A stretch of 62,857 nucleotides of DNA, filler included, from Squatina squatina (taxonomy: Eukaryota), in the NCBI GenBank assembly GCA_031763465.1. It is 4 parts of 4 records of this genome, joined end to end, with 100 filler letters (N's around TTAATTAATTAA, not from the genome) between each part and the next. Parts side by side here need not be neighbours in the genome. Positions count along the whole stretch, not along the records: positions 1 to 21,667 come from JARFOE010000235.1; 3 more parts are not named here. One strand, given 5' to 3'. Under the pieces are notes generated by a model. The model made no database searches. It worked only from the letters and a program-made list of their open reading frames with translations, and had not been told where the DNA came from. The position numbers were made by a program, and so were the translations under genes. Shown in pieces: positions 2,396 to 2,528 of this stretch (position 1 is the stretch's first letter; every line of letters begins with the position of its first letter).

Positions 2396-2528
<133 letters not shown>

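Follow-up and report, generated by a model that had tools for sequence, protein, structure and literature searches.

The window analysed here, 62,857 nucleotides of the Squatina squatina assembly GCA_031763465.1, carries on its minus strand part of an acid-sensing ion channel gene in which a TGA codon stands in frame where relatives have a cysteine. Does this stop exist in the animal, and, if it does, is it a null allele, the first mark of a lost gene, or a codon for selenocysteine?

The TGA codon and the residue that it replaces

The first-pass annotation had reported an in-frame TGA in place of a thumb-domain cysteine, and translation of positions 2512-2432 of the minus strand returned the same codon at 2497-2495, in the context GCT TGA AGG. 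The TGA is therefore present in the S. squatina assembly, in exon 4 of ASIC2 (the exon numbering is our own, with exon 1b counted as 1). The exon 4 stretch, G000:C235:3947635-3947847, is single-copy in the assembly; DNA and protein searches found no second, intact exon 4 elsewhere in it. When aligned to full-length chicken ASIC1 (chain 6ave_A), the TGA column falls on C309, the number that the annotation had given, and C309 is bonded to C362 in the thumb disulfide (PMC7041949).

Judging from the sequence, a genuine stop would truncate the ASIC2 protein near residue 352 out of 546 (2b numbering), upstream of the second membrane helix. Exon 4 is expected to be common to both isoforms, ASIC2a and ASIC2b. 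Skipping it was ruled out as a rescue because exon 4, its hidden part included, is 151 nt long and its removal shifts the frame. Stop-codon readthrough is favored where UGA is followed by CUAG. Here UGA is followed by AGG AUU, and neither CUAG nor a similar leaky context is present, as had been pointed out earlier; programmed readthrough was set aside on this ground.

Table 1. Features of the ASIC2 gene in the window
Feature	Position	Strand	Basis or remark
TGA at the thumb-cysteine site	2495..2497	-	chicken ASIC1 C309 equivalent; residue 352 in shark ASIC2b
ASIC2b-type first coding exon, 230 codons, open	12796..13485	-	93% to Carcharodon and Heterodontus ASIC2
Exon 2, open, AG/GT	5853..6003	-	homolog alignment, splice sites
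Exon 3, open, AG/GT	3254..3381	-	homolog alignment, splice sites
Exon 4, first two codons (L, I), AG acceptor at 2530-2529 upstream	2523..2528	-	
10-N assembly gap within exon 4	2513..2522	.	21 codons (63 nt) in relatives
Exon 4, 3' part, 27 codons and one base, then GT donor	2431..2512	-	ortholog alignment
Exon 7, open, AG/GT	1264..1355	-	homolog alignment, splice sites

Structure of the ASIC2 gene

We assign the gene to ASIC2 by the likeness of its sequence, as its nearest named relatives are ASIC2. All 70 protein matches at E<=1e-30 are of the ASIC2 type by name or RepID, a few unnamed ones excepted, and the best PDB match for the shark ortholog is ASIC2 (6l6p). The visible 3' part of exon 4 is identical to its shark and ray orthologs except for the stop. 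Outside exon 4, the earlier description of intact frames and splice sites stands: four exons are open and bounded by AG/GT.

The ASIC2b proteins of Carcharodon (XP_041029195.1) and Heterodontus (XP_067869390.1) are each 95.3% identical to the Squatina protein over the 423 visible residues. Squatina differs from both in having TGA at Cys352, in the 21 codons of the exon that are hidden, and in exons 6, 9, and 10, which three queries did not find in the assembly. In so gappy an assembly, failure to find these exons does not demonstrate their absence. Two loose contigs, L019 (731 nt) and L018 (898 nt), carry the probable exons 5 and 8, respectively.

An open first exon of the ASIC2a type, typed by its likeness to 6l6p, is found some 46 kb upstream of the ASIC2b one (L008, G000:C235:4004281-4004796, minus strand). 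The mammalian ASIC2 locus is larger, and the shark locus is compact by comparison. A further observation concerns the other end of the gene, where an alternative last exon was seen at L002:5369-5274 on the minus strand (about 3940768-3940673 of G000:C235). It has an AG acceptor and 31 codons, starting AVFCNLMTGYPYH, followed by TAG, and is 76-93% identical to annotated isoforms of Cetorhinus, Pristis, and Heterodontus; this C-terminus is thus common to sharks and a ray.

Elsewhere in the window, a scan of 60 of the 97 open frames showed an exon at 23349-23615 of the plus strand, in the second of the joined parts, that matches Pfam DUF4495 (PF14906, E 6e-16). Weak matches below the cut-off were seen to DRC7_C at 22672-23013 (E 0.003) and to LINE-type endonuclease domains at 61031-61579 of the minus strand.

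Conservation of the cysteine

The cysteine had been described as invariant in ASICs, and it was found in all 65 homologs that hold the exon (70 were examined, 5 of which are models without it). It is likewise present in 15 of 15 chondrichthyan genera and in 30 of 30 proteins from sharks, rays, and a chimaera among those listed, one protein cluster being represented by 15 of its 26 members. Neither U nor X occurs at this column in the 65 homologs or, among the proteins listed, in the 15 genera. A TGA common to other chondrichthyans, which the first-pass annotation had proposed to look for, is accordingly not seen among the annotated proteins listed; this set is biased, since a gene with such a stop might escape annotation.

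Sequencing runs were also consulted. None of the 24 public runs listed holds half of the 32 words (the best share was 0.16), no RNA run holding them is listed, and no run of S. squatina itself was evident. Contigs from the runs of four relatives (4 of the 24) span the exon and the intron that follows, differing at 29-31 letters in the rows shown. These contigs end at 2512, and differences fewer than 31 letters from an end are apparently unlisted; position 2495, 18 letters from the end, cannot be read there, and the alignment speaks neither for nor against the TGA.

Is the gene decaying?

Neither a second stop nor a frameshift was found in the 423 visible codons, and their splice sites are intact; about 120 of some 546 codons are unseen. 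The further disabling lesions by which a pseudogene is recognized are thus missing from the visible codons and their splice sites, and an old pseudogene appears unlikely from the sequence. Of 363 core columns, 7 depart from the majority in the window, as compared to 4-13 in eight other sharks. Two hundred ninety-three of the 423 columns are invariant in the 15 genera listed, and the window departs from four of them, with the stop and with the changes D to E, V to I, and T to A. Leaving the stop aside, this makes three private changes, versus 0-1 in seven sharks and 5 in Scyliorhinus. Either the lack of close kin of this lineage in the set or a slight relaxation could account for them. All three are conservative, and the E and the A match the residues of bony-vertebrate ASIC2.

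A recent loss of ASIC2 in this shark lineage, with the stop as its first fixed lesion, would agree with the missing exons 6, 9, and 10 and with the three private amino acid changes. Half of the scaffold is N, however, so that absent exons are expected, and the private changes are of the conservative kind just described, two of them shared with bony vertebrates. The lack of a second lesion, the intact splice sites, and the open first exons of both 2a and 2b also weigh against a loss, and a literature search covering titles and abstract openings found no report of ASIC2 loss in this lineage. We regard a fixed loss as very improbable.

The TGA borders a gap within exon 4

Fifteen bases separate the TGA codon from a 10-N gap, and its third base, 2495, is 18 nt from that gap. 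The codon had been described as lying 15 nt from a contig end; the distance was correct, but the end is a gap inside the same exon. The dipeptide LI and the motif YSITA are 21 residues apart in 30 of the 30 chondrichthyan proteins listed, and the ten N at 2513-2522 therefore correspond to 63 coding bases. With 21 codons hidden within exon 4, the TGA stands at the edge of a hole.

In this assembly a run of ten N serves as a placeholder; 24 gaps of exactly that length occur within the 692,857 bases examined, and such gaps understate the length that is missing. One of them, located in a repeat (L002:7887-7896), is bridged by six intact copies in which the hidden lengths are 46, 46, 56, 56, 60, and 233 nt, that is, about 46-60 nt in five of the six; as only 1 of the 24 gaps had bridging repeat copies, these are too few to gauge the error rate at gap edges. 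A real deletion of 63 nt was not favored, as the assembly would be expected to run straight across a deletion and the length hidden at the calibrated gap is similar.

The assembly as a whole comprises 1.52 Gb in 1,152,659 contigs. Of the 692,857 bases examined, 343,288 are N (some perhaps not true gaps), and pieces free of N have a median length of 1,094 nt. A gap is found within 20 nt of only 26 of the 1,275 visible coding nucleotides, and of the 178 single-base changes that could create a nonsense codon among them, 3 fall within this distance; the 20-nt limit was set after the site had been seen. From the position alone, the odds in favor of a cause linked to the gap are some tens to one. 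Heterozygous sites can contribute to breaks in short-read assemblies, and real alleles are thereby enriched near gaps; we discounted the figure for this reason.

A wrong base call as the likeliest explanation

The TGA adjoins a gap in a patchy assembly, relatives have cysteine, and the rest of the visible gene is intact; for these reasons, we consider it very likely that the TGA in Squatina ASIC2 is a sequencing error. The codon is truly in the assembly but probably not in the animal. The probabilities that we attach to the four readings (error, null allele, fixed loss, and selenocysteine) are our own judgment.

Thin coverage probably left the hole that is seen in exon 4, with the contig presumably extending as far as one or two final reads reach. 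A single miscalled base, turning TGC or TGT into TGA, would then pass into the consensus, because an edge that rests on one or two reads lets a lone miscall through. A Poisson sketch, which assumes a read length of 150 and was run over a range of depths, puts the chance that the TGA is covered by a single read at 55%, 30%, 9%, and 3% for 5, 10, 20, and 30x, respectively.

Some observations count against an error. YSITA is encoded correctly by the 15 bases that separate the stop from the gap, so the end of the contig is not junk, and three private changes occur in otherwise invariant columns.

A private nonsense allele of the sequenced animal, probably heterozygous, is the alternative that we rank next, and we hold it to be unlikely. 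One substitution suffices to produce it, the neighboring bases are correct, and a new allele would spare the rest of the gene, which matches what is seen; the frame shift caused by skipping exon 4 would leave it without rescue. It is expected to truncate ASIC2a as well as ASIC2b near residue 352 and to send the mRNA to nonsense-mediated decay. Against it stand the small share of possible nonsense changes that fall so close to a gap (3/178) and the strong conservation of the gene among the genera listed (293 of 423 columns).

False stops of the kind that a wrong base call would create here have been described. Older, more fragmented vertebrate assemblies required more corrections of premature stops (PMC8081667). 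The Squatina TGA resembles those cases in that the assembly is fragmented and the stop is the only one in a conserved gene that is otherwise intact; it differs in that the published stops were exposed by better assemblies, whereas the TGA is known from one assembly alone. The first-pass annotation had ranked error above null allele and null allele above selenocysteine. The codon at the edge of a hole, the cysteine in relatives, and the lack of any other lesion bear out this order, and the evidence widens the lead of error over the other two.

Selenocysteine

A selenoprotein is usually first recognized by a UGA that aligns to a cysteine. Under such a reading, one shark lineage would have converted a structural ASIC2 cysteine into selenocysteine, with an Se-S bridge replacing the C309-C362 thumb disulfide and a SECIS element in the unassembled 3' UTR. 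The in-frame UGA does align to the homologs' cysteine, though in the assembly only; at least one SECIS in the genome scores above the Rfam cut-off; the 3' UTR of the main isoform was not located among the contigs; and lineage-specific fish selenoproteins may have been missed (PMC13134290).

The SECIS search returned nothing at this locus. Neither Rfam nor our own pattern-and-energy scan detected an element on the sense strand in the roughly 18.7 kb of downstream sequence that is not N; the region takes in the area behind the alternative last exon and leaves out the UTR of the main isoform, so the downstream check that had been proposed is answered for this region only. Rfam gave two weak, unrelated matches below the cut-off over 34,111 bases. 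The pattern-and-energy scan recovered its single control (shuffle means, 0-0.15). This control, a SECIS at L021:133-197 of the plus strand (G000:C201097; RF00031, 36.5 bits, over the cut-off), lies on a loose contig of 530 nt and was supplied by a genome-wide search in which 130 of 21,919 candidates were scored.

Other evidence is also adverse. Vertebrate selenoproteins (PMC3316567 and PMC13134290) show the same in-frame TGA aligned to the homologs' cysteine, but Squatina ASIC2 differs from them in having no selenocysteine in any ortholog, no SECIS found, and a structural disulfide residue at the site. Neither U nor X was seen among the proteins listed for the 15 chondrichthyan genera or in the 65 homologs; orthologs of a selenoprotein are expected to share the residue, and here all 15 genera listed have cysteine. 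Selenocysteine is also expected at a catalytic or redox site, and this column is the partner of C362 in the thumb disulfide. The codon and a new SECIS would, moreover, have to arise together. The two surveys report no change from cysteine to selenocysteine within vertebrates, and their available text does not name ASIC2 among the selenoprotein families (PMC3316567 and PMC13134290), and no selenium-containing ASIC was found in the titles and abstract openings of literature on selenocysteine and acid-sensing ion channels. We therefore consider the conversion of this cysteine, in one lineage and with a SECIS beyond the assembled sequence, extremely improbable, and recoding of the UGA with an Se-S bridge no less so.

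Implications

What the TGA means depends on which reading holds. A heterozygous null allele, if genuine, would count as an ordinary rare variant, and a loss that is fixed would make this shark a natural ASIC2 knockout. Selenocysteine would break the Sec-to-Cys-only pattern of the two vertebrate surveys; it would be a vertebrate case of Cys-to-Sec conversion and would place a DEG/ENaC channel among the selenoproteins. If the TGA is an error, as we favor, it matters as a caution only: a 10-N gap in this assembly can hide about 50-60 bases, even within an exon, and a lesion adjoining such a gap should not be called a gene loss or a recoding without reads. Squatina ASIC2 is then likely an ordinary ASIC2, with a cysteine at this site.
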